The position numbers were made by a program, and so were the translations under genes. A model generated the notes under the pieces. The model did no database searches. It saw only the letters and a list, made by a program, of their open reading frames with translations, and had not been told where the DNA came from. A stretch of DNA of 23,399 nt from a virus. Lineage: Duplodnaviria; Heunggongvirae; Uroviricota; Caudoviricetes. Position 1 is the first letter of the stretch, and each line of letters opens with the position of its first letter. This document shows positions 3,272 through 18,400 of the stretch, piece after piece. The stretch is taken from IMG/VR virus record IMGVR_UViG_3300043313_001192, positions 153,598-176,996 of that record; one strand, written 5' to 3'.

Positions 3272-5320
3272 CTACGGCGTGACCTCGGTCAGGTCGGACG
3301 CCGATCCGGTCGGGACCAGGTTGGAGGTGATGTGCACCGACTCCCCGCCGACGTGCGCGAGGTTGTAGAACGACTCGGTGAACTCGCAGTAGGTGTTGTT
3401 CGCGACGTGAGCGCTGTCGCGAATGACACCGAGATCGAGCGTGCCGCCGTCCAGCACCAGCCAGGTGCCCTCGGCGAACATGTCCCACTCGACCGTCTCG
3501 GGGAACCCGGTCGTGGTCTCCAGGACCCAGTCGTTGCCTGCGCCTCCGGCGTTGCTGTCCTCCCAGTCAGGGAAGGGCGAGCCCCACGCGGCCTCCATCG
3601 ACCAGGTGATGTTGATGTTGCGCGCGCTGAACCACTGGTTCAGTCGCGCGTCGGTCAGCGCCATCACCTCGTTGAGTCCGTCGCCAGGCATCTGGTAGGA
3701 GATGTCGGCGCGGATCAGGTCGTGGATCCAGTACGGCATGACCACGCGGAAGGACTGCGTGGGCGAGATCCGGTTGCGGTACCGCAGCACCGACGCGACC
3801 TTGTCGACCTGGCCGAGGATCTCCCGAGCAGCGCCGAGCGTCTGGTTGGCGGTGACCGTCTGGGTCGCGCCCGCCTTCAGCTTGGACAGGAAGAACTGCT
3901 CGGTGGACCGGGCGTGCTGCACCAGGGCCAGCTCGTTGTGCGCCTTGACCAGCTCGGGGAAGACCCGGCCGGTGAGGTTGTCGAAGCACAGGCAGACCGA
4001 GACCGCTTCGAGCACGGCCTCCTCGAACGGCAGGCACTGGACCGGGAGACAGGGCTTCTCGCCTCGCGGGTTGGAGCCGTCCAGGTCGGTGACGTTGCTG
4101 GCCGGGTCACCCAGGGGGTCCCAGACACCGATGGCGCCGTCGTAGTCGGCCTCGGGAAGCAGCGGGCTCGGGTAGAACCGGATGCCACCTCGGTCGGCGG
4201 TGAACCGGGGGAGAGAGTCCTGCACCGGGGTGTCGGTGGAACCGATGCCGTCGATGTCGTAGCGGATCTCCAGCGGGATGCAGGCCCCAGCGGCGGCCGT
4301 GATGGCCTCGATACCGGCGACCTTCTGGATCTTGTCCCAGTTGCCTTCGGTGTCGCCGGGGTTGAGTACCCGGTCCTCGGGGTAGCTCGCCGTGAGCGTC
4401 GCAACGGTGTACTGCTGACCGTTGGGAGACGAGACACGGGAGAGGTTCTGCAGACGCTTCATGAAAGCGTTGGTGACCTGCGAAGAGCTGGTCAGCTCGG
4501 TACCGGCACTGATGCCGGGGATGTCAGCCCCTGCCGTGATGGCCACGCTCGCGTGTTCGCGCGGAACAGGCCGGTTCTCGGCGGGCGGCGTGACGACCAC
4601 GTCGGATGCGGAGGCTGCCACTGGGATCTCCTCGGGTAGGGCAGGTGGGTTGGTGGACTCTGCTGCGGGCTCGGCGGGCACCTCGGCCGGAGGTGCTTCC
4701 GTGCTCACTTCGGCCGTGACCTCGTTGCTCGGAGGGTCAGGCACGTTCTCGGGGCCGGTCGGCTCGTTCTCTGGCGTCGACGGCTCGTTGTCGGGCGTCG
4801 GGTCAGATGCGGGCGCGGGCGTGGGAGTCGAGTCCTCGACCTCGGCGAAGGTTCCAGCCGGTACGGCCTTCTTCTTCTTCTCCTCCTCGGTCTCCTCCGG
4901 AGCCTCGCCCGCGGGATCGGGATCGGGGGTAGGTGGAGCGCCCTCGGGGGGCGGGACGTCCGTGGGTGCCTCGGCCGGAACATCGGAGGGATCCGCGGTC
5001 GGCTCGGCGTCGACGGGGGCGCTGTCATCGGCAGGCGGGTTCTCCCCGTCGGCGGGGTCCTCGTCCTGCTTGGGCTTGACGCGGGAGGCGGCCTCGGCGG
5101 CACGCTGCTCCAGGTCCTTCGCTGCGGCGACCCTGTTGTGCTGCTCGCCTCGTACTGCGTCGAGGGCGTCAGCCAGAGCCGTCATGGAATCGACTACCTG
5201 AGCCGTTGGCTCCTGCTTCTCGACCGTCTCGAACTCGGAGATGATCTTGCTTTCCAGATCGGAAAGCTGTCCCTCGTCGAGGTCGGAGAGCCGGTCGAGC
5301 ATCTCCTTGATGCCATCCAC
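3272..5320 (-). CDS. Major capsid protein (HK97 fold) with about 340-aa N-terminal scaffold region, 682 aa
   Basis: GTG start, GGAG 6 nt upstream. Helical N-terminus, acidic Pro-rich linker, then AGACIP..IRYD, LP.F.A.RGGIRF, C..FDN...R.FPE, GG.LDLGVIRDS....N.Y..F.E capsid-type motifs. Confidence 0.9.
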   Translation of the reverse strand: MDGIKEMLDRLSDLDEGQLSDLESKIISEFETVEKQEPTAQVVDSMTALADALDAVRGEQHNRVAAAKDLEQRAAEAASRVKPKQDEDPADGENPPADDSAPVDAEPTADPSDVPAEAPTDVPPPEGAPPTPDPDPAGEAPEETEEEKKKKAVPAGTFAEVEDSTPTPAPASDPTPDNEPSTPENEPTGPENVPDPPSNEVTAEVSTEAPPAEVPAEPAAESTNPPALPEEIPVAASASDVVVTPPAENRPVPREHASVAITAGADIPGISAGTELTSSSQVTNAFMKRLQNLSRVSSPNGQQYTVATLTASYPEDRVLNPGDTEGNWDKIQKVAGIEAITAAAGACIPLEIRYDIDGIGSTDTPVQDSLPRFTADRGGIRFYPSPLLPEADYDGAIGVWDPLGDPASNVTDLDGSNPRGEKPCLPVQCLPFEEAVLEAVSVCLCFDNLTGRVFPELVKAHNELALVQHARSTEQFFLSKLKAGATQTVTANQTLGAAREILGQVDKVASVLRYRNRISPTQSFRVVMPYWIHDLIRADISYQMPGDGLNEVMALTDARLNQWFSARNINITWSMEAAWGSPFPDWEDSNAGGAGNDWVLETTTGFPETVEWDMFAEGTWLVLDGGTLDLGVIRDSAHVANNTYCEFTESFYNLAHVGGESVHITSNLVPTGSASDLTEVTP
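4271..4295. repeat. 25-bp direct repeat, copy 1 (in MCP); copy 2 at 6539..6563
   Basis: cagcgggatgcaggcccca-g-cggcg versus cagcgggatgcaggcccca-c-cggcg: 19 bp exact, 24/25 overall, same frame. Confidence 0.9.
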
Positions 5321-5399
5321 TGCTGACTCCAGGGTCAGATGGGGACTCTCATGACGGTCGTGCGACGTGGGCTCTCAACCGGCCCCAGTGGGTGTTGGG

Positions 5400-5408
5400 A
5401 CTGTACCA
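5400..5408 (-). promoter_or_regulatory. Putative extended -10 element (TGGTACAGT) upstream of MCP
   Basis: Matches TGnTAnnnT in an 88-nt intergenic gap; no clear -35. Confidence 0.45.
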
Positions 5409-5414
5409 CTAAAC
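5402..5414. repeat. 13-bp AT-rich motif TGTACnnCTAAAC, copy 1; inverted copy at 11430..11442
   Basis: TGTACCACTAAAC (+) versus TGTACACCTAAAC (reverse complement of 11430-11442); 11/13 identical. Confidence 0.6.
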
Positions 5415-5573
5415 ACCGGGCGTGCCGCTGGGTGGCGGAGACTCCTGTGCAGCAGGGGGATTCGGCTGAACGGTGCCCATGTTCCGCAGTCCACGCATCC
5501 TGATCCAGGCGATCGAGATGGTGGAGATGGTCGTGATCGCCAGGATCAGCACTTCTCTGGTGTTGTCGTCCAT
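5409..5573 (-). CDS. 54-aa single-TM protein (below the ORF-track cutoff)
   Basis: TGATG overlap with the upstream stop; AAGGAG upstream. MDDNTREVLILAITTISTISIAWIRMRGLRNMGTVQPNPPAAQESPPPSGTPGV*: hydrophobic segment followed by basic residues. Confidence 0.7.
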   Translation of the reverse strand: MDDNTREVLILAITTISTISIAWIRMRGLRNMGTVQPNPPAAQESPPPSGTPGV

Positions 5574-5932
5574 CAGCGTCGCCGCTCCTTGGTCTGGTCC
5601 TGGACCAGGAACGCGCCGTAGCCGGTGAACATCCCGGCCAGCAGGAACAGCGCGATCCCCGCGCGTCGAGTCGGATCGTCGGCGGTGTCGACCAGGTAGA
5701 ACAGCAGCGTCGTGAACCCGGCCCAGCCGACGAGCAGGAAGGCGAACTCCTCACCAGGAACCTTCACGCTCGGCACGCTGTAGATGATCAGGCCGAGTAT
5801 CGCGAGGCCCGCGACAACCACCACGAACCACTCGCCCCATTGGATGGTGTCAGTCGGGTACACGGCGAAGAAGATGATCCCGACGCAGTAGAGGAAGGAC
5901 GCAACCGTCAGCACCGTCCGCCACCTGGTCAT
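5573..5932 (-). CDS. 119-aa four-TM membrane protein (holin-like by topology only)
   Basis: RBS GGGGAG 5 nt before ATG; four hydrophobic segments; charged C-terminus KERRR. Confidence 0.8.
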   Translation of the reverse strand: MTRWRTVLTVASFLYCVGIIFFAVYPTDTIQWGEWFVVVVAGLAILGLIIYSVPSVKVPGEEFAFLLVGWAGFTTLLFYLVDTADDPTRRAGIALFLLAGMFTGYGAFLVQDQTKERRR

Positions 5933-5953
5933 GCCTGCTCCCCTACCCGTCGA

Positions 5954-8900
5954 CTAGATCAAGAACCGCAGAATGCGCGACAGCTCGGCCGAGATCTGGG
6001 GCTGGGAGAGGACGTCACCTCCGGCCATGAACTCAGAGATCTTGCCCCCGGCTTCGGCTAGATGCTCAGGGTCGAGACGCTGCTCGGCGCGCTTGTACAA
6101 GTCCTGCATCAGGCCCTGGAGGTCGGGGGGCAGGTCGGAGAACTTGTACTTCTCGTTGAGGTCACCGAAGACCAGCGGCAGGTTGGCCACCGCCTCAGCC
6201 AGGTTGCCGTAGCCCTCGCGCAGAGTCTTGACCGCACCCTCGTCCTCGGTGTTCTTCGCGATCTGGTCGACCAGGTCGAGCACACCCTTGGCTGCCTGCT
6301 GGGCGGCCTCGGTGTCACCCTGGTTGGCCGCCTGCTGGACCTCGTCGAGTCCTTCGACCGCTTGCTGGGTCCCGGCCTCACCCTGCAGATCCTTCTTCAG
6401 CTCGGCGATCACCATCCGGAACCGACCCTTCTCATCGCGCGGGTGGTTGCCGGGGTCCCACGGCGAGCCGTCGGGGTAACGGCCACCGGCGGCGAGCAGA
6501 CTGATCCCGTCCAGGGTCTCGTCCGAGGCGCGCAGGATCAGCGGGATGCAGGCCCCACCGGCGATCAGCGCCATCCGTGCGGCGAGATCCTCGACCTCAC
6601 CGGCCACGTCCTGGACCGGGGTGCTCAGCGCGGCCCACGACTCCGGGATCAGGTCGGTCTTGCCGAGCGCGCGGGCGCGCTTCTTGATGTGGCGGCGGAC
6701 CTTGGCCTTGTCGCCCTCCTTGGCCCGGCCGTAGGCACGGATGGCGTTCTTCAGGTCGCCCACCGTGGCGATCGGGTAAGAGCCGTCCGGCAGCGCCTGG
6801 CCCTTCTTGGACATCTCCTTGCGCTTGTCGGTGCCGATGTCGCGGAACAGCTCCTCCCCACCGCTCATCAGTGCTGCCATCCGCTCGCGTGCGGCAGCAG
6901 CCTCCGGCGAGCGCAGCGTGACGAACTTGTTCAGCGCCGCCGCGCGAGCCGCGTCCAGCCGGGCCTGGTACTCCGCACGGACCGGGTCCATCCGGGCCAG
7001 CGCGGCGGCGCGGGCCTGAGACAGTGCTTCGCGCTGCGGGGTCTCCAAGGCGTCGACCCGCTCGATCAACCTGTCCAGCGGCGCCGCGTCGGCATCGCTG
7101 CGGATCCGGGCCAACACCGACGTGCCCGCCGCGACCAACGCGTAGACATGTCCGGAGGCCACCCGAGCACGCACGGTGGGGAAGCCGGGCACGTTGACCT
7201 GGCAGATCGCGACCATCTCCAACCGCCCGTTGATTGGACGCCAGTCTCCGGACGGCGCCGCGGCGCGGACCGCCCGGACCTGCTCGGCGTTGATGCTGGG
7301 GCGCATCGCACCGGCCACCCAGATGCCGTAGGCGTCCTCACCGGCGTGCACGTCGCAGAACGCCGAGGCGGTGTCGTCGTAGTGCTTGACCGCCATCGCC
7401 GCGTCGGACTCCAGCGGAGCGTGTCCACCGGCCAGGGTGATCTGCCCGACCGGGACGTCCTTGCCCTCCTCGGTGCGCAGTAGCCCGGTGTGGAAGTAGG
7501 CGTAGTTCGACCGGCTCCGGGGCGGCCGGGTGGAGAACGGGAGCCCGATGTGCTCGGTGTCCCAGGTCGCCACGTGTCCGTAGACCCGACCGTCGTCGAG
7601 CACGGTCAGCGGCGTCTCCTGCTTCAGTCCCGGATCCTCGAACCACTCCTGGGGCGGGTGAATGGGGATGCCCGCTGCGGTCAACGCCGAGCGAACCATC
7701 TCCTCGGTCTCGGCCTCCGTGACGGGAGTTCCGATGTAGGTTCCGTCGGCAACCATGGGCTCTTCCTCCTCCTGGCCTTCCTCTAGCTCGATGCGTACTT
7801 CCTGGAATGCGGGCTTGGCGACGAGCGTCGCGCCCATCACCCGCCCATTGGTGACAGTCATGTCGTCGGCGACGATCCGCACGATGTCGGGGCTCTCGCC
7901 CTCGCCCGGCTCACGCTCGACCGACTCAGGGCTGCGAGCCTCGGCCTCGAAGTTGTCGAGGTCCACCGAGACGCCGCGCAGGAACTTGTGCCGGACCAGC
8001 CGCTCGGCCTCCTGGCCGTACGGCCCGACGTCGAAGACACCACGGGCGTTGACCAGCGAACCGTCCTCGGAGCGCTCCATCGAGTCGATCCGGCCGACGA
8101 TCACCGAGTCGTCGTGGCCCTCGGCGGTCTTGATCTGCCACATCAGCGGCAGCGGCAGGTCGCGAGTGGTCAGCGAGAGCGGTGCGAAGCTGCGCCCGTC
8201 GCCAGACTTGATCCCGATCGGGGCCAGCACCGGGATCACGAACGGCGAGCCGGACAGCTCGGTGGGGACCTGGTCGGCCCGCTCGGGTGCCTCGACACCG
8301 GCGATCAGCGTGTTCGCACCGGCCAACAGCGCCGAGTAGGCGATCACCTCGTCAGTGCTCAGCAGGTGCACGTCGAAGAGCTGGCTGCGCTCGGACGCCG
8401 AGCCGCGCCGCCCGACGTTGCGCCGGTCACCGGGCCACTCGCCGGTCATCAGGTGGTGCAGGCTGGCGCAGTAGCCCTCGCTCATTCCTGGCTTGGGCAT
8501 GTACTTCTTCAGGTGCCGGTTGCACCGGGTCCAGTCGCCAGGGGTGTTCCAGCGGACCTTGGCGGTACCGCCGGTGCCGACCGTCCAGTACTTCTTCAGC
8601 CGGTCCACGTTGGCGACATCGTTGGGGGTGTCGGCGATGCCGGGGATGCCTGCGGCGAGGATCTCGACGACTTCGCCGTACTCGCCCCAGATGGCGGCGG
8701 CCGACGCGGCCACTGACGCTGCGGCGTCCTTGGCCTCCTGCTCGGCCTCGGCCTTGCCCTCGGGCGTCTGGTAGAACGCCTGCACCTGCGTCATCGTGTC
8801 GTTGAAGGTGGCCTCGTCGAGGGAGACGATCGCGGGTGGTGAGCTGGACTGCAGCTGACGCAGCACCTTGGGATCGTTGACCCAGCCGGTCGCGGTGTAG

Positions 8901-11422
8901 CGCAGCACCTGGGCCTGGTTGCCGGTGGTGCTGGCCGGGATCATCGCCAGCAGCTCCAGCACCGCTTCCTGGTTGGCCTCATCCACCTCGGCCATGTAGA
9001 CCGGCGCGACGTCGGACTGGGCAGGGTCTGTGATGGGCTGACCAGTGCCTCCTGCGTCCGGCAGCACCGGCACCTCGGCCGGTTCGTCCTTCTTCTTCCG
9101 GGCCGCAGCGGTCAGCGAGCCGCGCTTGTAGCCAGGCAGGATCTTGCGGTAGATCCGGTCGATGGCGTCGCGCGCGCTCTTGCCACCGGCATGGATCTTC
9201 TCCAGCCGACGCTTGTAGTCGGCATCGGCCTTGGCCTGCTCACGCTCCCACCGCGCCTTGGACTCCTTGTCGAGCGCCTTCTGGGCCTGGTCACGCGCCT
9301 TCTTCCCGGCGCGCTCTTTCTCGATGAAGTTGGGGTAGTTCGCGATGACCGCCTTGATCGCCTCGGCGTCCATCGGTGGCAGCAGCGACTTCAGCAGCGC
9401 CTTGGGCGTGTGCGCAGTAGCGCGCGGAATGGCCTGGATCTTGTCGAGGTCGACCACACCCGGCTGCACCCTGGTGCTCTTGGCCGGGACCCACTCGGAG
9501 GATCCGTCGTCGTCGTAGGTGACCTGGACCTTCTGGGTGGCCGGGTCGATCTTGGCCACGGTGCCGGTCCGGGCCTGCGGACCGACGGCGATCTTGGAGC
9601 CGGACCTGGCGAACCGGCCGCCAGCGTCACGGACCTGCTTCTTGGCGTTGGCCGCGCGCTCCTCAGGGGTGTAGCCGTCGTCCTCGGCGAAGACCTGGGG
9701 GCGGTAGTCGAAGGTGACCCCGGAGGCGGTGACCACCGCGACCCGGTTCAGCATCTCGTTGTCGAGACCAGGGATGGCCTCGGCCATCACCAGAGCCTCA
9801 CCAGGGTCGACCTCGCGCAGGTCGACCGGCTGGTCGGGAAAGATCGACTGTGCCCGGACCACTTCGCGGGCGGTGTCATCGTCCAGCTCGATGATCTGGG
9901 CAGGGGAGCCGAGGTGGGTCTGCTCCCAGGTTCGGGTGCTCGGCTCGAAGCGGTAGAACATCGCGCCGTCACTGACGTAGAGCTGGTCCACGGTCAGCGA
10001 GTCGTCGCCGGTGTAGGCGGCGTAGTAGGTCAGCGGGTCGTCTTCCTCGGTGCCGCGCCGCTCCCAGAACGCCGTCTTGAGGTCGTCGTCCGCGATCAGC
10101 TCCTCCAGCGGGTCGCTGAGGTCGAACTCCTCCCAGTCGACACCGTGGATCTCAGCTGCTGCCTGGACCGGGGACGGGGGCGCCTCGCCGCCGTCGGCGA
10201 CCTGGGCGTCCCAGTACTGCTTGGTCTCCGCGATCTTGGCGTCGATCTCGGTCTTGTTCGCGTAGTAGTCGGCCAGCGCCGCCTGCTTGTGCAGGGTGTC
10301 GTCGACGGCCTTGCCGCAGATCTCGCACGTGTCCGGGTCATCGACGGTCTCGGAGAAGTAGTGCGCGTCGTCGGGCGTGATGTCGGCCTGGTCGTAGTCG
10401 ACGGCGTCGGGCTGGTGCCGCTCGTCCATCTCGCCGGTGCCGCAGTAGGTGCAGACCTCAGGGTTGCTGGTCACCGGGGAGTACACGTGCGGAGCCTCAC
10501 CGTCGAAGCTCTCTCCCTCGGGAACCTCCTCTTCCTCGACGTCCACGTTGGCGTCGGGGTCGTAGCCCGCGGCGACCAGCGCTTCCGCCTCCACCCGACG
10601 GATGGTCCGGGTGGCCCAGTCACGTCCGGCGTCACCGCCTAGTGCTGAGTAGGTCAGGGCGCGCGCCGAGGGGTACCGAGCCGAGGACTTCGAGCCGCCA
10701 CAGCTGCACGACCCGTTGCCGTCGCACTCGGAGGTGTGCGGGCCGTTGATCACCGAGAACGCGCGTGGCAGCAGCCGCAGCGTGTCGTAGTCGACCTCCT
10801 CGTCCTCGGCCAGCTTCTGCCCGATCGTGGTCGCGGCGGTCGTCGAGTCCTGGGTCTCGGTGGCCTGGGCGACCTTGGCGGCCCAGACCTTCCCGGCGTC
10901 ACCGCCCCAGGAGGCCCAGACCGTGGGGTCGACCTTCTCCTTGGGGTGCCGAGAGAAGTAGGTGTGCATCTGCTGGACGACCTGCGGGTGGATGGCAGCA
11001 CCGCTGGCCAGGTGCTCAGCACGGGCAATGTCGGTGCGGTCGAGGTCAGCCTCGACGCTGCTGCGTGCTGCCTCTCGCACCGTGGCCGGTGGCACCAGGC
11101 TGGTTCCGGCGGCGATCACCGGCAGTTCGATCTCACGCTGGTAGGTGGTGGTCCAGCGCAGTGCCTGTCGGGCGCTGGCCCGGACCGGCTCGGGGACGGT
11201 GAAGGTGCGCAGCGGATCGACGTCGACCGCCAGCGCCGAGCGAGCGAGCAGGGTGGCGCGGCGCTCTTCGGTGCTGCGCCCGGAAGGGACGAAGCCGCCA
11301 TGGCTGGTCAGCTCAGCAGCGCTGAAGACGTCGGTGACGTCACCACTCTTGAGATCGACGGCGACTGCTGACCCGGCGTGCTCGAAGAACATCCAGCCAC
11401 TGCTCGCACCCAGCGTTCGCAT
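5954..11422 (-). CDS. 1822-aa capsid maturation protease polyprotein (two protease-like domains plus accessory modules)
   Basis: Uninterrupted ORF between cargo genes and MCP, carrying GHD/GVSVD/LVAKPAF and GH/SGDWR/VNVPGFP motif sets. Confidence 0.88.
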   Translation of the reverse strand: MRTLGASSGWMFFEHAGSAVAVDLKSGDVTDVFSAAELTSHGGFVPSGRSTEERRATLLARSALAVDVDPLRTFTVPEPVRASARQALRWTTTYQREIELPVIAAGTSLVPPATVREAARSSVEADLDRTDIARAEHLASGAAIHPQVVQQMHTYFSRHPKEKVDPTVWASWGGDAGKVWAAKVAQATETQDSTTAATTIGQKLAEDEEVDYDTLRLLPRAFSVINGPHTSECDGNGSCSCGGSKSSARYPSARALTYSALGGDAGRDWATRTIRRVEAEALVAAGYDPDANVDVEEEEVPEGESFDGEAPHVYSPVTSNPEVCTYCGTGEMDERHQPDAVDYDQADITPDDAHYFSETVDDPDTCEICGKAVDDTLHKQAALADYYANKTEIDAKIAETKQYWDAQVADGGEAPPSPVQAAAEIHGVDWEEFDLSDPLEELIADDDLKTAFWERRGTEEDDPLTYYAAYTGDDSLTVDQLYVSDGAMFYRFEPSTRTWEQTHLGSPAQIIELDDDTAREVVRAQSIFPDQPVDLREVDPGEALVMAEAIPGLDNEMLNRVAVVTASGVTFDYRPQVFAEDDGYTPEERAANAKKQVRDAGGRFARSGSKIAVGPQARTGTVAKIDPATQKVQVTYDDDGSSEWVPAKSTRVQPGVVDLDKIQAIPRATAHTPKALLKSLLPPMDAEAIKAVIANYPNFIEKERAGKKARDQAQKALDKESKARWEREQAKADADYKRRLEKIHAGGKSARDAIDRIYRKILPGYKRGSLTAAARKKKDEPAEVPVLPDAGGTGQPITDPAQSDVAPVYMAEVDEANQEAVLELLAMIPASTTGNQAQVLRYTATGWVNDPKVLRQLQSSSPPAIVSLDEATFNDTMTQVQAFYQTPEGKAEAEQEAKDAAASVAASAAAIWGEYGEVVEILAAGIPGIADTPNDVANVDRLKKYWTVGTGGTAKVRWNTPGDWTRCNRHLKKYMPKPGMSEGYCASLHHLMTGEWPGDRRNVGRRGSASERSQLFDVHLLSTDEVIAYSALLAGANTLIAGVEAPERADQVPTELSGSPFVIPVLAPIGIKSGDGRSFAPLSLTTRDLPLPLMWQIKTAEGHDDSVIVGRIDSMERSEDGSLVNARGVFDVGPYGQEAERLVRHKFLRGVSVDLDNFEAEARSPESVEREPGEGESPDIVRIVADDMTVTNGRVMGATLVAKPAFQEVRIELEEGQEEEEPMVADGTYIGTPVTEAETEEMVRSALTAAGIPIHPPQEWFEDPGLKQETPLTVLDDGRVYGHVATWDTEHIGLPFSTRPPRSRSNYAYFHTGLLRTEEGKDVPVGQITLAGGHAPLESDAAMAVKHYDDTASAFCDVHAGEDAYGIWVAGAMRPSINAEQVRAVRAAAPSGDWRPINGRLEMVAICQVNVPGFPTVRARVASGHVYALVAAGTSVLARIRSDADAAPLDRLIERVDALETPQREALSQARAAALARMDPVRAEYQARLDAARAAALNKFVTLRSPEAAAARERMAALMSGGEELFRDIGTDKRKEMSKKGQALPDGSYPIATVGDLKNAIRAYGRAKEGDKAKVRRHIKKRARALGKTDLIPESWAALSTPVQDVAGEVEDLAARMALIAGGACIPLILRASDETLDGISLLAAGGRYPDGSPWDPGNHPRDEKGRFRMVIAELKKDLQGEAGTQQAVEGLDEVQQAANQGDTEAAQQAAKGVLDLVDQIAKNTEDEGAVKTLREGYGNLAEAVANLPLVFGDLNEKYKFSDLPPDLQGLMQDLYKRAEQRLDPEHLAEAGGKISEFMAGGDVLSQPQISAELSRILRFLI
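6539..6563. repeat. 25-bp direct repeat, copy 2 (in protease polyprotein)
   Basis: 24/25 identical to 4271..4295; encodes AGGACIPL. Confidence 0.9.
7150..7665 (-). other. Second prohead-protease-like domain of the 1822-aa protein (approximate bounds)
   Basis: GHVATWD (His1283, 7574-7576), SGDWR (Ser1391, 7250-7252), closing VNVPGFP analogous to the V..PA motif. Confidence 0.55.
7795..8245 (-). other. HK97/assemblin-fold prohead protease domain of the 1822-aa protein (approximate bounds)
   Basis: LPLM.Q...GHD...VGRI (His1103, 8114-8116), GVSVD (Ser1152, 7967-7969), GATLVAKPAF. Confidence 0.85.
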
Positions 11423-12405: not shown

Positions 12406-15400
12406 CACTCATCCTCATCTCCAGGAGGGATTGCACCAGGGGGCAGTGGCGGCGGCGGAGCCTCCGGGGACACTCCCGCCCACTCGAACGAGTCGTAGAA
12501 CTCATCGCGCTCCCGTACGGCCTCGGCGCTGTAGTCGATCTGCTCCGGGCGAGAGACGAGGTCAGGCTCGGTCTCGTCGACCACGTCGGCGGCAGCGGCG
12601 ATCGGGGCAGCAGGAGCAGGAGGCAGCGTGGGGCCAGGGTGCTCGGGGACGCCGGTGTACTCGACCAGCTCGTCGAAGGAGTGCGGCAGGTCCAGCTCGT
12701 TCTCCAGGTCCCACCAGACCGAGGGCGAGACGTAGTGGTCCCTGGCGGTGCCCCACCCGTCGTTGATGCGCTGGCCCGCCGCCTTCCAGACGCTGATCTT
12801 GAACTTGTCGAACTCCGCCTGGCTCATGCCCTTCTTCGGACGCACCGGGCGGGTGCCCTTGCTGCTCTTCTTCTTGTAGGCCACCAGCGTGCCCAGGAAC
12901 TGCCGCGCCGCGTTGGTGGCCACGTAGGTGCGCAGGTCGTGGTTGATCAGGTCGGGGATGCCCGTCGACTCACGCAGGTAGTTGATCGACTGGTCGGCGG
13001 TGACGTCGCCGAAGATGAACTCGTTGCGCCCCTTGCCCTTGCTCCACTTCTCCAACGCCGCCTGCAGCCGGGGCTCCTTGATCGTGTAGTCGTTGTCGAT
13101 CCCGGACTTGCCCATGAAGTCGAACCGCACCGAGTTCTGGTTGAACCGCAGGTGCTTGGGCATCAGCGACGTCCCGCCGATCACCTGCTCCAGCTTCTTG
13201 CGCTTCTGGCTCTTGGTGCGGTTCTTCCCCTTCGCGTTGTCCACCCGCATGCCGGTCTCGATCAGGGTGGCCACCAGCGCCGCGACCGGGTCGTCCATCG
13301 CCTCGTTCAGCGCCTTCTCGCGCAGATCCGCGTGCACCTTGTGCAGCGCCTTCTCGCGCTGGAACTTCTGGGCGTTGCCGGTCTTGCTGTGCTTGTAGTC
13401 GTAGATGTTCGTGGGTGTGTCGTTGCCCGGCATGATGACCTTCATCAGCAGGGTGCCGTCCTGAGAGGCCCAGTTGCGGTTGTACCAGACCCCGATGGCG
13501 TCCTTGGACGGGCCGGTGAAGTCGGGGTTCGCCTCCTTCATCGCCGCCATCACCGAGTCCCAGTTCTGGTCGCCCGGTCTGATCTCGGTCATGTCGAGCT
13601 GGCCGTGGGCCTCGCTCTTGTGCTTGCTGGCCCGCTCGATCTGAACCACGTTCGGCAGCGGCTGCTCCTGCTTGGGTGCTGGTGCTCCCAGCGCCGAGGA
13701 GATCTGGTTCTGGACAGGTACCCGCTTCTTGACGACGACCGGGCTCTTCATCATCTCGGGCAGCGTGTGGTTCTCGAAGTTGTCGAAGAACTCGAAGATC
13801 GCCTGCCCGGCTTCGGTCTTCCTGTCTCCCATTTCCCGCAGCGTGATCCCGTCAGCACGAGCCGGACCCCAGTGCCCGTGCAGCAGGGCGCTTCCACCCT
13901 TGGTGTAGACAGACTGCTTCCAGTTCTCCCCGTCGCGCCCCTCCTCGGGCTCCGCCAGCATCCGGCGCATCGCGGCGTACGCGGCGTACCCCTGTGCCCA
14001 CATCTCGGTGGTCCCGGCAGCGCCGTTGTGGGTAGTTGCCCCCTCGTCCTGGTTGCGGTAGTACCAGTTCAGCAAGGTCGCGTCCGGGGCATCACCGTAG
14101 GAGGCGATCTCCTGCAGCTTGGCGCGCAGCGCCAGGAACTCAGGGTCGCCGTCGCTGTAGAACCCGCGCCTGCCCTGGGAAACAGAGACCTCACCGATCA
14201 TCGAGTCCAGCGCGTGACCCAGCTCGTGGCTGACCACGTTGGTGACGCCGTCACCCCACTGGAAGGTCGAGTCGGCGACCACGACGTTGTTCTCGTGAGG
14301 GATGTAGTGCCCGGTGGTCTGCTCAGGTGTGCGGTCGTCAGCTCCATCGTGAGGAGGGTTGACCCAATCTGGCGACGTCACGATCGAGGCGTAGTTCGTG
14401 CTGGCCTCGGTGACGTTGCTGCGCGTGCGGTGGATCCCGCCGCCGTAGGCGGCGTACATCGAGTTCAGCGCAGCGGCGACGTTGGGGGTGATCTCCGAGA
14501 CGCCTTCGTTGAACGCCATGTCGGCCACGACCGTCTGGTCGGTGCCCTCACCAGTGCGATCGTCGACAGTCAGGTTGGACGAGAGCGTGTTCTCCCCATC
14601 CCAGGTGAGCAGAGTCTTCTTGCCGCCGGTCAGGTCGGAGACCAGCTCGGCGTCCCCGTTCTTGACCGCCTCGTCAAGATCCAGGTCAGTCAGGGTGCTG
14701 TTCAGGAACCCGAAGCGATCCTGGTCTGAAGCCGCGCGGATCGCGTCAGCGAGTGCGGGGGAGACGCCGCCGTGTGCACGCTGGTACTCCGCAGCCTGGT
14801 TGACGATGTGGGCGTAGACACCGTGCCCGGCGGCACTGCTGCTGTTCGCCAGCTGGAGGGCGATCTGGTCGACCAGTGCGATCGACTCTTTCTCAGCAGG
14901 CTTGCCGGTGTCCTGAACCAGACGGAAGTCCATCATCGACTTGTCGGCCTTCTGCCGCATCTCGACCGGTGGATAGGCGTCCATGCTGAGCAGGTCGCCC
15001 ATCTCGTGCTTGTCGAGCTGCTCACGCAGCACGTCTTCCAGAGGTGCTGGGTCGAGGCCCGCACTGCGGAGCTGGTCGAACATCGTCTTGGCTGCGGTGA
15101 TGTCGTCGGTCAGCCGCCGAGCGGACTCGGTGGCCGCCACCACCTCGAAGTCGTGCATCTTGCTGCGGACCTCCGGGTCGCGCAGTGACATCGCATGCTC
15201 CGCGGTCGAGGCGACCTCGGGCATCATGTCGATGAACTCGTCGGTGTTCTCGATCGTGTTGCCCGGACGCATCGCGCGTTCAAGGTTGCTGCCCTGGATC
15301 TTGGCTGATCCGGCACGCTCCATGGGTGTGGACAACCAGTCGCTGGCGTAGAGCTTGTCCACCTCGGCCTTGCCCTCGGAGGCGGCCGAGACGACCTGCT

Positions 15401-18400
15401 CACCGAGGATCTGGTTGATGTCACCGCTGGCCAGATCCGGGTCCACCTGGGCGTCGAAGTTGGCCCACAGATCGAGCACGTCCTGGACGGCCTCGTCGTT
15501 GTAGCGACCCAGCACCGTGCTGACGTGCTCGGGTGTGAGCTGGTCGAAGCCGCCACGCCTCATCGAGAACATCATCCGGGTCTCGTCGGCGAACTTCGTC
15601 TCGGCTTCCAGCAACCGGTTGTTGAGCAGCTGGTCAGCGATGCTGCCCTTCTCGACGTTCTTGGAGAGCTTCTCGTTGATCTGGTGCAGCGACTCGAAGT
15701 AGTCGGTGATGGCCTGACTGCGCTTGTCCTGGAACTCGGGGCTGACTACCAGGTCGCGGATGGCAGCGGGGTCGGAGGCACTGAGGCGAAAGGGCGCGTC
15801 GCCACCACCTGCCTCTCCAGGGGTCTCACCCTGTGACGGGCCTTGCCCGCCGTCCAGCTCGTCAGCCACTCGACGCAGTTCGTCGACGGCCGAGCTGGGA
15901 TCGCTGAGTCCGAAGTTGCCTTCGAGGTAGTCGGCCAGCCTGCGCAGATCCTCCGACAGCTCGGTGTAGGGACCCTCGCTGGTGATCCGGCCGCGGATCA
16001 GGCCGAGCTGGGCGTTGGCCTCGTCGGTCAGCTCGGTCCAGCCGACCGGGCCGTTGTCGCCCTCGGTCTCGTTCTCGGTCTCGATCGCGCTCTCCACGTC
16101 GGAGAGAGCGCTCTGGACCTCGGCTACTTGGGCGGCTTCTGGCCCGCTGCCTGCTGGCCCTTCGGGCGCTTGCTCTTCGGGAGGAACACCGGGTTCGGCT
16201 TCTCCACCTTCCGGGCTTGGGCTCTCCAGTCGCCTGGCCCCCGGAACTCCTTCTTCTGGTCCTGTGCCACCGGCTTGCTCCTCTGCCACGTGTGGGGGCC
16301 AGTATCCCAGCCCGTCCTTGAAGTTGTACGCGCCACCCTCGGATCCGGAGTACGCACCGACCGCCTCGACGTCGTCGAGGTTGTCGAAGACCAGCACCGG
16401 GTCGATCTCGTAGTTGCCGGTGTCGTCGTTGCGGAACACGCCGAGGTGGGCCTGCTCCGCCCACAGGGGGCTGTCCTCGTCGGCGCCGAACTGGGCCAGC
16501 GCCTGCTCCATGCCAGCGTCGAAGTCCTCCTGGCTGGACCCGATCGGGACATTGACGGTGTCAGTACCGGGCGGGCGGAAGGTGATCGCGTAGGCGTCCT
16601 CGTCGCCGGTGATCGCCTGCCCGGTGTGGGCGTCGATGGTGACGCCGCCCCACTCCTCCTGGACCGAGTCCCAGGCGGTGCTCTTGACCTCGTCCCAGGT
16701 CTGGCCCTGCAGCGCGTCGGGTGCTGCGGTGTTCTCCAGGATGCCGTCCAACCGGTCGCGGCCCTTGAGCGCCAGCGCGGTGTACTCCTCCGGGGAGACC
16801 TCGCGGGTACGCGGGGTCTCGGGGTTGGAGAACTGGCTCGGGGTGAGCGGCTCCACCTCGGGCATCCCGGCAGCGTCCAGTGCCTCACGCGCGGTGCCCG
16901 CTCCCTGCTGCGGAGCCTCCGCGACGGCAGGAGCCTGCTCGGGTGCTCCCTCGGGAGCCGTGGCCGGACCGGTGACACCACCCATGGCGTCGAGCCGGTC
17001 GGCGTGCTCGCGGGCTCGGGCGGAGGGAGCGTCGGTGGGTGTGTCGGCCCCGTCGTAGGCGTCCGCGGCGTCGCGGAACTTCTGCGCCGCGGCGGCGTTG
17101 TCGCCGTTCTTGATGTCGGCGCGGGCGCCGTCGACCAGGCTGCGGACCTCGTCGCTGCGGGACAGACCGCTCAGGAGGTTGCCGACGTCACTGGTCCGGC
17201 GGAGCGCAGTGTTCTGGCTGGAGTAGCCGCGCGCGCCCTCTTCCCCGGCGGCGCGTGCGAGTCGGTGCGCCATCTGGCTGGCGACACCCTTGTCCGAAGG
17301 CTTCTCGAACTGGTCTGCTCCCAGGCCATCGACGTGGTCCGCCAGCCGTGAGGCGTCCGCACCATTGATCTCCTCGCCGTTCTTGACCGCCTCGGTGATC
17401 CGGCTGATCTCCGGGTCGGCCCCTTCGACTCCCGCCACGTGGTCGAGCATCTTCTTCTGCTTCGACGTCGAGCGGGCAGCGACCCTGCCGGTCCCGGCAG
17501 TGCGGACTGCGCGCTCCTCGGAGCGGGGGTCCTCGACCGCCTCGGCGGGCATGTCCTTGTCACTGTCGAGCGCGACGTTCATCATCGCGCCGTCGGCGAC
17601 GTTCACGTACTGGTTGGTGCCTGCGGTCCTCGCCGCGTCGCTGGCGTCCTGCTCCTCGTCGAAGACACCGACCCGCGCCATCCGGTAGCGGCCGTCGTCC
17701 TCGTCGTGCCAGATCGAGACGCCGTCGAAGCTGCTGCCCTCGGTCTCGGCCAGGAAGTCGGTGATCTCCTCGGCAGTGGGCTCGGCGTCATACTCCGAGA
17801 CGGTGGCGTGGTCCACCACGTAGAAGCCCTCGTCCACCTGCTGGTCACCCTGCATCACCAGCGCCGAGCCGTCATCAGCCTGGACCGCATCGGAGACCGC
17901 GTCGTCGACCTTGTCGACCACCGGGTCCACACCTTCCGGCGTCACGTCCGGAGCGCCCTCGGGACGCTCCTGGCGGGAGACCGGCTGCGACGCGCCACCG
18001 AAGAGGTCAGTGCCCGCGTCGACCTTGGCCTGCAGCACCTGCAGCAACGGTGGCCTGTTCTGGCCACGCCCACCCTGGGGGTTGATGCCGGTGAGCATCG
18101 CGTGCAGCTTGCTGCCCTTCAGGTTCGCGTTGACGTTGGTGTTGACGACCCTGGACAGCTCGCCCACCGCGCTGAGCAGTGCCTGGGCGTCCTCGGCCTC
18201 TACTGCGGCGGTGACACCGTCCAGGTACTTGCGCAGCTGCCTGCGCTGGGTGGGGTCCTTGGCCGCAGCCATCGCCTCCTCGCCGAACCCCTGCAGGATC
18301 TTGTTCATCTGCTGTGCTTCGGACACCGCGGCAGGCGTCTCTTCAGGCGGCACCTCAGCCCCCTGCTCCGGGCCGGTCCCGGTCTCCTGAACGGCCTGCT

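Follow-up and report, generated by a model that had tools for sequence, protein, structure and literature searches.

A cleavage-type motif shared by the major capsid protein and the protease polyprotein of a phage, and a probable short DNA copy beside it

Why would the major capsid protein (MCP) of a phage and the polyprotein (PP) that carries its head-maturation protease have a short peptide in common and, beneath it, nearly the same DNA? The question is raised by a 23.4-kb stretch of DNA (23,399 nucleotides (nt); hereafter the window), which is the end of the 176,996-bp IMG/VR virus record IMGVR_UViG_3300043313_001192. The record has direct terminal repeats and the GC content is ~67%. The minus strand reads ITAAAGACIPLEIR at 4262-4303, in the MCP gene, and LIAGGACIPLILR at 6530-6568, in the PP gene. 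A sequence-only reading of the window had described the first as the predicted mature capsid N-terminus, copied into the polyprotein by recent duplication or gene conversion, and had proposed for the copy a role as docking arm or as co-adapted protease substrate, with a cysteine that could cross-link; its coordinates, peptides and DNA identity are all correct upon sequence comparison. Two layers of resemblance, which that reading left unseparated, can be told apart. The main cause appears to be a family-wide cleavage motif in the upstream half of the match. For the downstream half, we consider it rather probable that one short templated copy (micro gene conversion) was made from the MCP gene into a linker of the PP gene, without an essential role. 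The two genes and the two copies of the tract are:

3272..5320, minus strand: MCP gene, 682 amino acids; phrog_777 major head protein, E 1.8e-81
5954..11422, minus strand: PP gene (polyprotein carrying the head-maturation protease), 1822 amino acids
4271..4295, no strand assigned: 25-nt tract, MCP (donor) copy, 24/25 identical to 6539-6563 (repeat family D17 and local alignment)
6539..6563, no strand assigned: 25-nt tract, PP (recipient) copy, 24/25 identical to 4271-4295 (repeat family D17 and local alignment)

The MCP appears to be built of a ~345-residue N-terminal scaffold-like part, with a coiled-coil and a proline-rich tract, followed by an HK97-fold body. The shared peptide lies at the junction of the two, across two adjoining elements:

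4286..4306, minus strand: cleavage-type motif AITAAAG of the MCP (residues 339-345), which closes the last helix of the N-terminal part on its C-terminal side
4262..4285, minus strand: P′ peptide ACIPLEIR of the MCP (donor copy), residues 346-353, start of the predicted mature N-arm

Among ~200 actinophage MCP sequences (taken from 9 cultured phages and 70 IMG/VR loci, with 120 more from metagenomes), AITAAAG-ACIPLEIRYDI aligns gap-free to A[LI]VA[AS]G-G-x-x-x-P-x-E-x-[KR]-Y-D-I, and the motif occupies the identical column in all MCPs examined, at the junction of the scaffold-like part and the body. The stretch that follows, G-x-C-x-P-L-E-x-[RK]-Y-D, is conserved family-wide, with G-x-C-x-P-L-E kept down to 44% MCP identity; in the MCP alignment A2 the proline is invariant and the cysteine, leucine and glutamate are each at least 90% conserved. 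In the cluster B mycobacteriophage Haleema, the MCP has SLIAAGG followed by W-C-A-P-S-E, and AALVAS is found after the protease. The AlphaFold2 (AF2) model of MCP residues 324-682 (predicted local distance difference test score, pLDDT, 72) resembles the capsid proteins of FCWL1, T5, T1, Che8 and others (Foldseek probability 1.0, E ~1e-9), and the body is accordingly modelled with the HK97 fold. In the AF2 model of the MCP, a helix stops at the motif and low-pLDDT coil comes next, as expected for an N-arm. The position, conservation and exclusivity of the motif, together with the predicted disorder, suggest that the N-terminal domain is removed at this point. Taking the MCP peptide as a predicted mature N-terminus is thus reasonable by both alignments and AF2. 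As a separate observation on the MCP, the cysteines at residues 347, 424, 429 and 443 (3992-4051 and 4280-4282) are at least 90% conserved in 43 diverse relatives, within the patterns C-x-P-L-E (one), K-P-C-L-x-V-x-C (two) and C-L-C-F (one); they could form a shell-stabilising disulfide or a metal site, which would be unusual among HK97-fold capsids.

In PP, residues 1241-1441 match the head maturation protease family phrog_18402 (E 2.9e-57), and phrog_859 and phrog_21470 match too; the public gene call starts 10 codons further downstream and gives 1812 amino acids. The motifs, the domains that they bound and the spacer that holds the copy are, from the N-terminus:

10565..10582, minus strand: N-terminal PP motif ALVAAG, residues 281-286, among the six motif matches of the whole phage proteome
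7142..7669, minus strand: predicted protease domain of PP, ~residues 1252-1427, from PHROG matches; bounded by ALTAAG (7670-7687) and ALVAAG (7124-7141)
6554..6571, minus strand: PP linker motif 1 (residues 1618-1623, ALIAGG), which closes a predicted helix on its C-terminal side; in all close relatives
6482..6553, minus strand: PP spacer, from ACIPLILR to SLLAAGG, residues 1624-1647, 24 residues between two motifs; pLDDT 30-36, the lowest of the model
6482..6502, minus strand: PP motif 2, SLLAAGG, which ends the 24-residue spacer
5957..6481, minus strand: C-terminal helical domain of PP, residues 1648-1822, starting with RYPDG..HPRDEKGRF right after motif 2; conserved family-wide

The PP peptide does lie between two AAG-like sites, as described earlier, namely ALIAGG (6554-6571) and SLLAAGG (6482-6502). 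Counted genome-wide, the pattern [AS][LIVM][LIVT]A[ASG](1-2)G has six matches in the ~52,800 coding residues of the 177-kb phage, five in PP and one in the MCP, where composition predicts 1.55 overall and 0.054 in PP: it is over-represented in head-assembly proteins and scarce in the rest of the proteome. Three looser matches in the tape measure protein were taken as chance, as they start with glycine and lie in Ala/Gly-rich stretches. That protein (1979 amino acids, genome 143296-149235, locus L111 97-6036 on the minus strand, outside the window) also has a C-terminal metallopeptidase-like region that matches PHROG peptidase and endolysin families.

The PP motifs appear conserved in position among divergent relatives, at domain boundaries. 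Both motifs that bound the protease domain keep their place: the one before it reads ALVAAG-YIADAIPVVPP in relatives and ALTAAG-IPIHPP here, the one after it ALVAAG-ASxLA in relatives and ALVAAG-TSVLA here, with LVAAG invariant in the 37 sequences of alignment A3 (36-82% identity). Distant relatives have ALVAS or VVAAG at the spot homologous to linker motif 1. In the AF2 model of PP residues 1407-1822, a helix at 1602-1621 is followed by a disordered stretch, the lowest pLDDT (30-49) being found at 1612-1650, between helical modules, and values below 50 also at 1414-1433. In the relatives L108, L109 and DSL-LC01, the linker is a gene boundary: the C-terminal domain is there a separate gene beginning in the same linker. 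Because of the conserved position at the MCP boundary, the recurrence around the protease and the genome-wide exclusivity, A-[LI]-[VTI]-A-[ASG](1-2)-G can be read as the putative recognition and cleavage signal of the head-maturation protease.

Two further observations concern the C-terminal domain. Its separate genes lie at 5242-5886 in L108, 5126-5833 in L109 (both ~46%-identical relatives) and 13172-13723 in L001, so that the fused or split state varies across the family. Directly after the second motif, W-D-P-G-N-H-P-R-D-E-K-G-R-F (6419-6460) belongs to a [HQ]-P-R-D-x-x-G-x-F pattern present family-wide at the start of this domain, which may be a head-targeting peptide exposed by cleavage.

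A shared motif would account for the upstream half of the match, and the question becomes whether the rest exceeds chance. The 25-nt pair is the best repeat of the window. It is in frame, contains a 19-nt exact run and reads C-GCC-G[C/G]T-GGG-GCC-TGC-ATC-CCG-CTG on the coding strand, encoding GACIPL from residue 345 of the MCP and from residue 1623 of PP. The flanks of the tract show no further DNA similarity and are no more alike than shuffled sequence. Coincidence, that is, a short match arising from the shared Ala/Gly-rich motif and strong codon bias in a 67% GC genome, has some observations on its side: a longest exact repeat of at least 19 nt was reached in 6/200 codon-shuffled windows (p ~0.03), other parts of the window have exact repeats of 17-18 nt, and relatives have chance PP/MCP matches of 6-7 residues in low-complexity regions. 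However, a 25-mer with at most one mismatch was obtained in 0/300 codon shuffles. The match comprises five residues, including the rare cysteine, in the same register right after the motif, and an ACIPL-like peptide has no other occurrence in the 177-kb genome. Furthermore, when the P′ 8-mer of the MCP was compared with the PP of the same phage, the best match scored 32 here and in the 92% relative and 9-21 in 78 more distant relatives. At the codon level, the seven identical residues would all have the same codons by chance with a probability of 0.006 under the phage's own codon usage; the shared glycine codon GGG is a minority codon (19% usage), and a rare T-ending codon is common to both copies at the adjoining mismatched position (GCT/GGT). 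The DNA identity of the tract is hence above the prediction from shared residues and codon bias, and we regard coincidence as quite improbable. As to other repeats, the 18-nt exact direct repeats pair 8746-8763 with 15362-15379 (PP and the giant gene) and 14656-14673 with 17377-17394 (within the giant gene), a length within the codon-shuffle range.

If the PP copy were a functional mimic of the mature capsid N-terminus, acting as a docking arm or an optimal co-adapted substrate, possibly with Cys cross-linking, the spacer would be expected to follow the capsid arm. In the nearer relatives, drawn from metagenomes and assemblies, the following states are found between the two PP motifs:

Window, L010 and L096: spacer starts with ACIPLILR
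L097: spacer starts with ACVPLILR
L101: spacer starts with AAIPSILS
L102: spacer starts with AAIPVILS
L098 and P0129: spacer starts with S/G-TVPIILH
L105: spacer starts with RTFPLIIH
P0130: spacer starts with ATLPVVLQ, then an extra ~150-residue domain before the second motif
L107, L099, L104, P0134 and P0135: no spacer, single site MALISAGG-RYPDG

The paired MCP arms are GACIPLEI[KR], GSCIPLEIR, GSCVPLEIR, GACVPLEIR or GACVPYEYR, whatever the spacer type. The contigs of L097, with its ACVPL spacer, L098 and L099 end before their own MCP site, and the 90 N-terminal residues that they share give no discrimination. In a tree of the C-terminal 860 residues of PP, the spacer was gained once, in a clade of seven rows (support 92/94), with basal lineages without it; neither the 24-residue spacer nor the ACIPL copy is present in any cultured relative.

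Several features agree with a mimic: the identity is beyond chance, the copy follows a cleavage motif immediately, in the register that the MCP peptide has, and the spacer is unchanged in 92% relatives and almost unchanged in the 83% relative, with an I-to-V change inside ACIPL. The comparison among relatives points the other way. The co-variation between the two copies that a co-adapted pair would show was looked for across related phages and none was found: L101 has GACIPLEIK in its MCP alongside AAIPSILS in its PP, the spacers of L101, L102 and L105 are not significantly similar to the MCP arm of the same phage (p 0.31-0.76), and L107, L104 and P0135 (the latter paired with P0021) have the same or nearly the same MCP arm and no spacer. 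The copy hence seems dispensable and not a conserved element of the family, because relatives with an ACIPL arm have another spacer and near-identical arms have none. In addition, the spacer is predicted to be disordered, and its likeness to the MCP arm ends after the first 8 residues, past which similarity is not significant (p 0.27). The PP cysteine is replaced by alanine or threonine in sister lineages, so that a conserved cross-link role is unsupported. In this comparative test, which the sequence-only reading had itself put forward, its docking-arm, co-adaptation and cross-link ideas appear to fail, and mimicry is given a low probability. A related and slightly less probable proposal is that the spacer acts as a cleavable decoy for the capsid maturation site, kept alike by occasional gene conversion with the MCP gene, which would time the release of the C-terminal anchor domain with capsid maturation, or that the freed 24-residue peptide fills N-arm pockets of the shell. 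Two other derivations of the spacer were tried and rejected: that the whole of it came from the MCP arm, for want of similarity past the first 8 residues, and that it is a tandem duplicate of the preceding PP segment, which is not significant in any lineage (p 0.17-0.76).

Selection could also have produced the resemblance without any copying of DNA, if the protease of this clade preferred A-C-[IV]-P-L after the cut and the linker had to be cut at the rate of the MCP (kinetic coupling). A-x-I-P is already common to sister spacers and MCP, Ile-Pro soon follows the motif at other PP sites (e.g., ALTAAG-IPIHPP), and the SPN3US protease has a P1′ preference (PMC10052503). However, the other four PP motifs are followed by residues unrelated to ACIPL (YDPD, IPIH, TSVL and RYPD), which argues that the ACIPL residues are not required after the cut. 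Moreover, a change from alanine to cysteine takes two to three base changes, and neither the minority GGG codon nor the T-ending GCT/GGT codon is explained by selection at the protein level. Convergence is therefore held to be unlikely, with more to be said for it than for mimicry.

A templated copy from the MCP gene is the reading that we prefer. The five-residue identity after the motif (ACIPL or ACVPL) is limited to a shallow clade, the window phage and its relatives down to ~83% PP identity. The MCP sequence at this point is ancient and constrained, and its PP counterpart lies in what appears to be a derived, predicted disordered spacer that varies freely or is absent. The MCP is taken as the donor because G-x-C-x-P-L-E is conserved in MCPs down to 44% identity; donor and recipient are clear and the tract is sharply bounded. 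To pass from the sister state GCA-GCG-ATC-CCG-AGC to the MCP-like GCC-TGC-ATC-CCG-CTG requires multi-base changes, and differences from the sister of L101/L102 type amount to 10/25 in the tract vs ~19% nearby. One templated copy is favoured because excess DNA identity, sharp tract ends, a clear donor and the need for multi-base changes come together.

The age of the event can be bracketed from below. The MCP-like state is shared by relatives at 92% and 83% PP identity, in which the Gly, Ala and Cys codons have drifted independently, and the copy hence predates the split from the 83% relative. Between the window phage and the 92% relative, 15-22% of the codons for identical residues differ, so that 0/7 codon differences between the copies would be no surprise even if the event is old. 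The earlier proposal of a recent duplication or gene conversion is thus supported for copying at the DNA level, by the 24/25 identity, the codon test and the sharp ends, and is not for its recency.

A scenario can be proposed from these elements. The MCP motif would mark where the ~345-residue N-terminal scaffold-like part leaves the HK97-fold body, while the PP motifs would mark flexible linkers at which the protease releases itself and the modules next to it; the linker at 1618-1647 lies between a small helical module and the C-terminal helical domain. A templated copy of ~25 nt from the MCP gene into this linker was probably seeded by the similar motif-coding DNA, and was probably tolerated because the spacer would be a cleavable, unconstrained linker. 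The sequence identity with its statistics, the conservation, placement and exclusivity of the motif, the distribution of the spacer on the tree and the predicted disorder are direct results; that the motif is cut, at which bond, how the tract was copied and that the additional identity serves no function are inferred. Some slight selectivity of the protease for post-cut residues is conceivable, and the MCP-like state may give a small advantage, as it was kept in three sampled lineages.

Several points weigh against this reading. The 19-nt exact run alone is only weakly significant, five of the shared codons are the preferred ones, and the clustering of differences in the tract is modest, with another cluster close by. 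The spacer peptide is unchanged between the window phage and its 92% relatives, which is compatible with some function; the spacer of the 83% relative differs at three residues, including the one inside ACIPL. Because the sister spacers AAIPSILS and AAIPVILS have A-x-I-P in common with the MCP, part of the resemblance could predate the patch or reflect a mild post-cut preference. Finally, the genome-wide count of six motif matches is only partly independent, because the motif was defined from the same proteins, and a literature search on the motif strings and on actinophage capsid processing found no paper on the motif and no proteomic data.

The linker has a history of its own. The histories of MCP and PP differ, L101 being 83% identical in the MCP and 70% in PP. 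L098 adjoins the window clade on the tree yet has an L105-like linker, which suggests that the linker recombined: the L098/P0129 linker (SDPFSELAGEIND, TVPIILH) resembles that of the basal L105, and elsewhere along its length the protein clusters with the window clade, as would result from recombination inside the PP gene. The stretch between the cut motifs (6482-6571) also seems to be an insertion slot, as P0130 has its extra ~150-residue domain there and P0138 a much larger insert; the P0130 insert is of a ‘KIRWG-PGDF-RC’ type, which is found earlier in PP as well.

The head-maturation protease gene adjoins the MCP gene, as in HK97-type capsid maturation systems. The same order of giant protein, small protein, protease PP and MCP is found in Actinomycetia phage DSL-LC01, in the ~190-kb Microbacterium phages Big4, Zooman, A3Wally, Cece and Pumpernickel, in the Arthrobacter phages Atuin and Mimi, and in freshwater actinophages. 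Gordonia phage GodonK has it too, but with the polyprotein divided among several genes, and in the more remote cluster B mycobacteriophages the MCP adjoins a protease-MuF fusion protein. Between PP and MCP (5335-5932), the window has one or two small open reading frames, where relatives have genes of 86-125 residues, sometimes two. Pfam searches of MCP and PP gave no match, and sequence searches against solved structures with the MCP, the C-terminal part of PP, the MCP profile A2 and the Haleema MCP gave nothing meaningful, the only hit being dynactin at E 0.36, which is noise.

For annotation, the family appears to mark its head-protein processing sites with A-[LI]-[VT]-A-[AS]-G, a rule that would extend over soil and freshwater phages, ~190-kb Microbacterium and Arthrobacter phages, Gordonia phages and cluster B mycobacteriophages. 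It predicts the mature N-terminus of the MCP and the fragments of the giant protease polyprotein, which is of use when genomes are annotated and when cryo-EM or mass spectrometry data are interpreted. As for the 25-nt copy, it would illustrate, cleanly and on a small scale, how two genes of the same phage exchange sequence where they share a motif, and the PP linker appears to accept inserted modules between two cut sites. The understanding of capsid maturation is unchanged by these findings.

Processing of many head proteins at a consensus motif by one prohead protease is known from T4 gp21, phiKZ gp175 and SPN3US gp245 (PMC10052503). As in these phages, one short motif is found at the MCP propeptide boundary, at the self-cleavage site of the protease and in other head proteins, clustered in propeptides and linkers. 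Unlike theirs, the motif here is hydrophobic and small (A-L-V-A-A/S-G), not x-x-Glu, and the majority of sites belong to a single giant polyprotein, the one with the protease in it, with cleavage inferred from sequence. In Staphylococcus phage 80alpha, the Prp cleavage sequence is common to the capsid protein, the scaffolding protein and ribosomal protein L27 (PMC5744158). There too, an extended cleavage peptide is common to capsid and assembly proteins, no functional need for the sharing being apparent in either system; however, 80alpha relies on a protease of its host, a substrate of which is mimicked by the shared sequence, whereas here the phage's own protease would act and the extended identity is confined to one shallow clade. 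The arrangement also resembles the HK97 gp5 delta domain with the gp4 protease and T5 pb8/pb11, in that an HK97-fold MCP has an N-terminal scaffold-like domain removed, here by prediction, by a protease encoded just upstream. In contrast to HK97 and T5, the N-terminal part here has ~345 residues with a long proline-rich tract, the protease lies inside a multi-domain protein of 1822 amino acids, and no sequence match to solved structures was found. Compared with capsid-targeting or docking peptides, such as encapsulin cargo peptides or the C-terminus of the HK97 protease, the spacer is not conserved and does not co-vary with its capsid partner. Parallels are found as well in the actinobacteriophage proteins annotated by SEA-PHAGES as ‘capsid maturation protease and MuF-like fusion protein’ and ‘major capsid hexamer protein’, in cluster B mycobacteriophages and ~190-kb Microbacterium phages, which are homologous, stand in the same gene order and have the motif in common with this phage, both at the boundary in the MCP and downstream of the protease domain.

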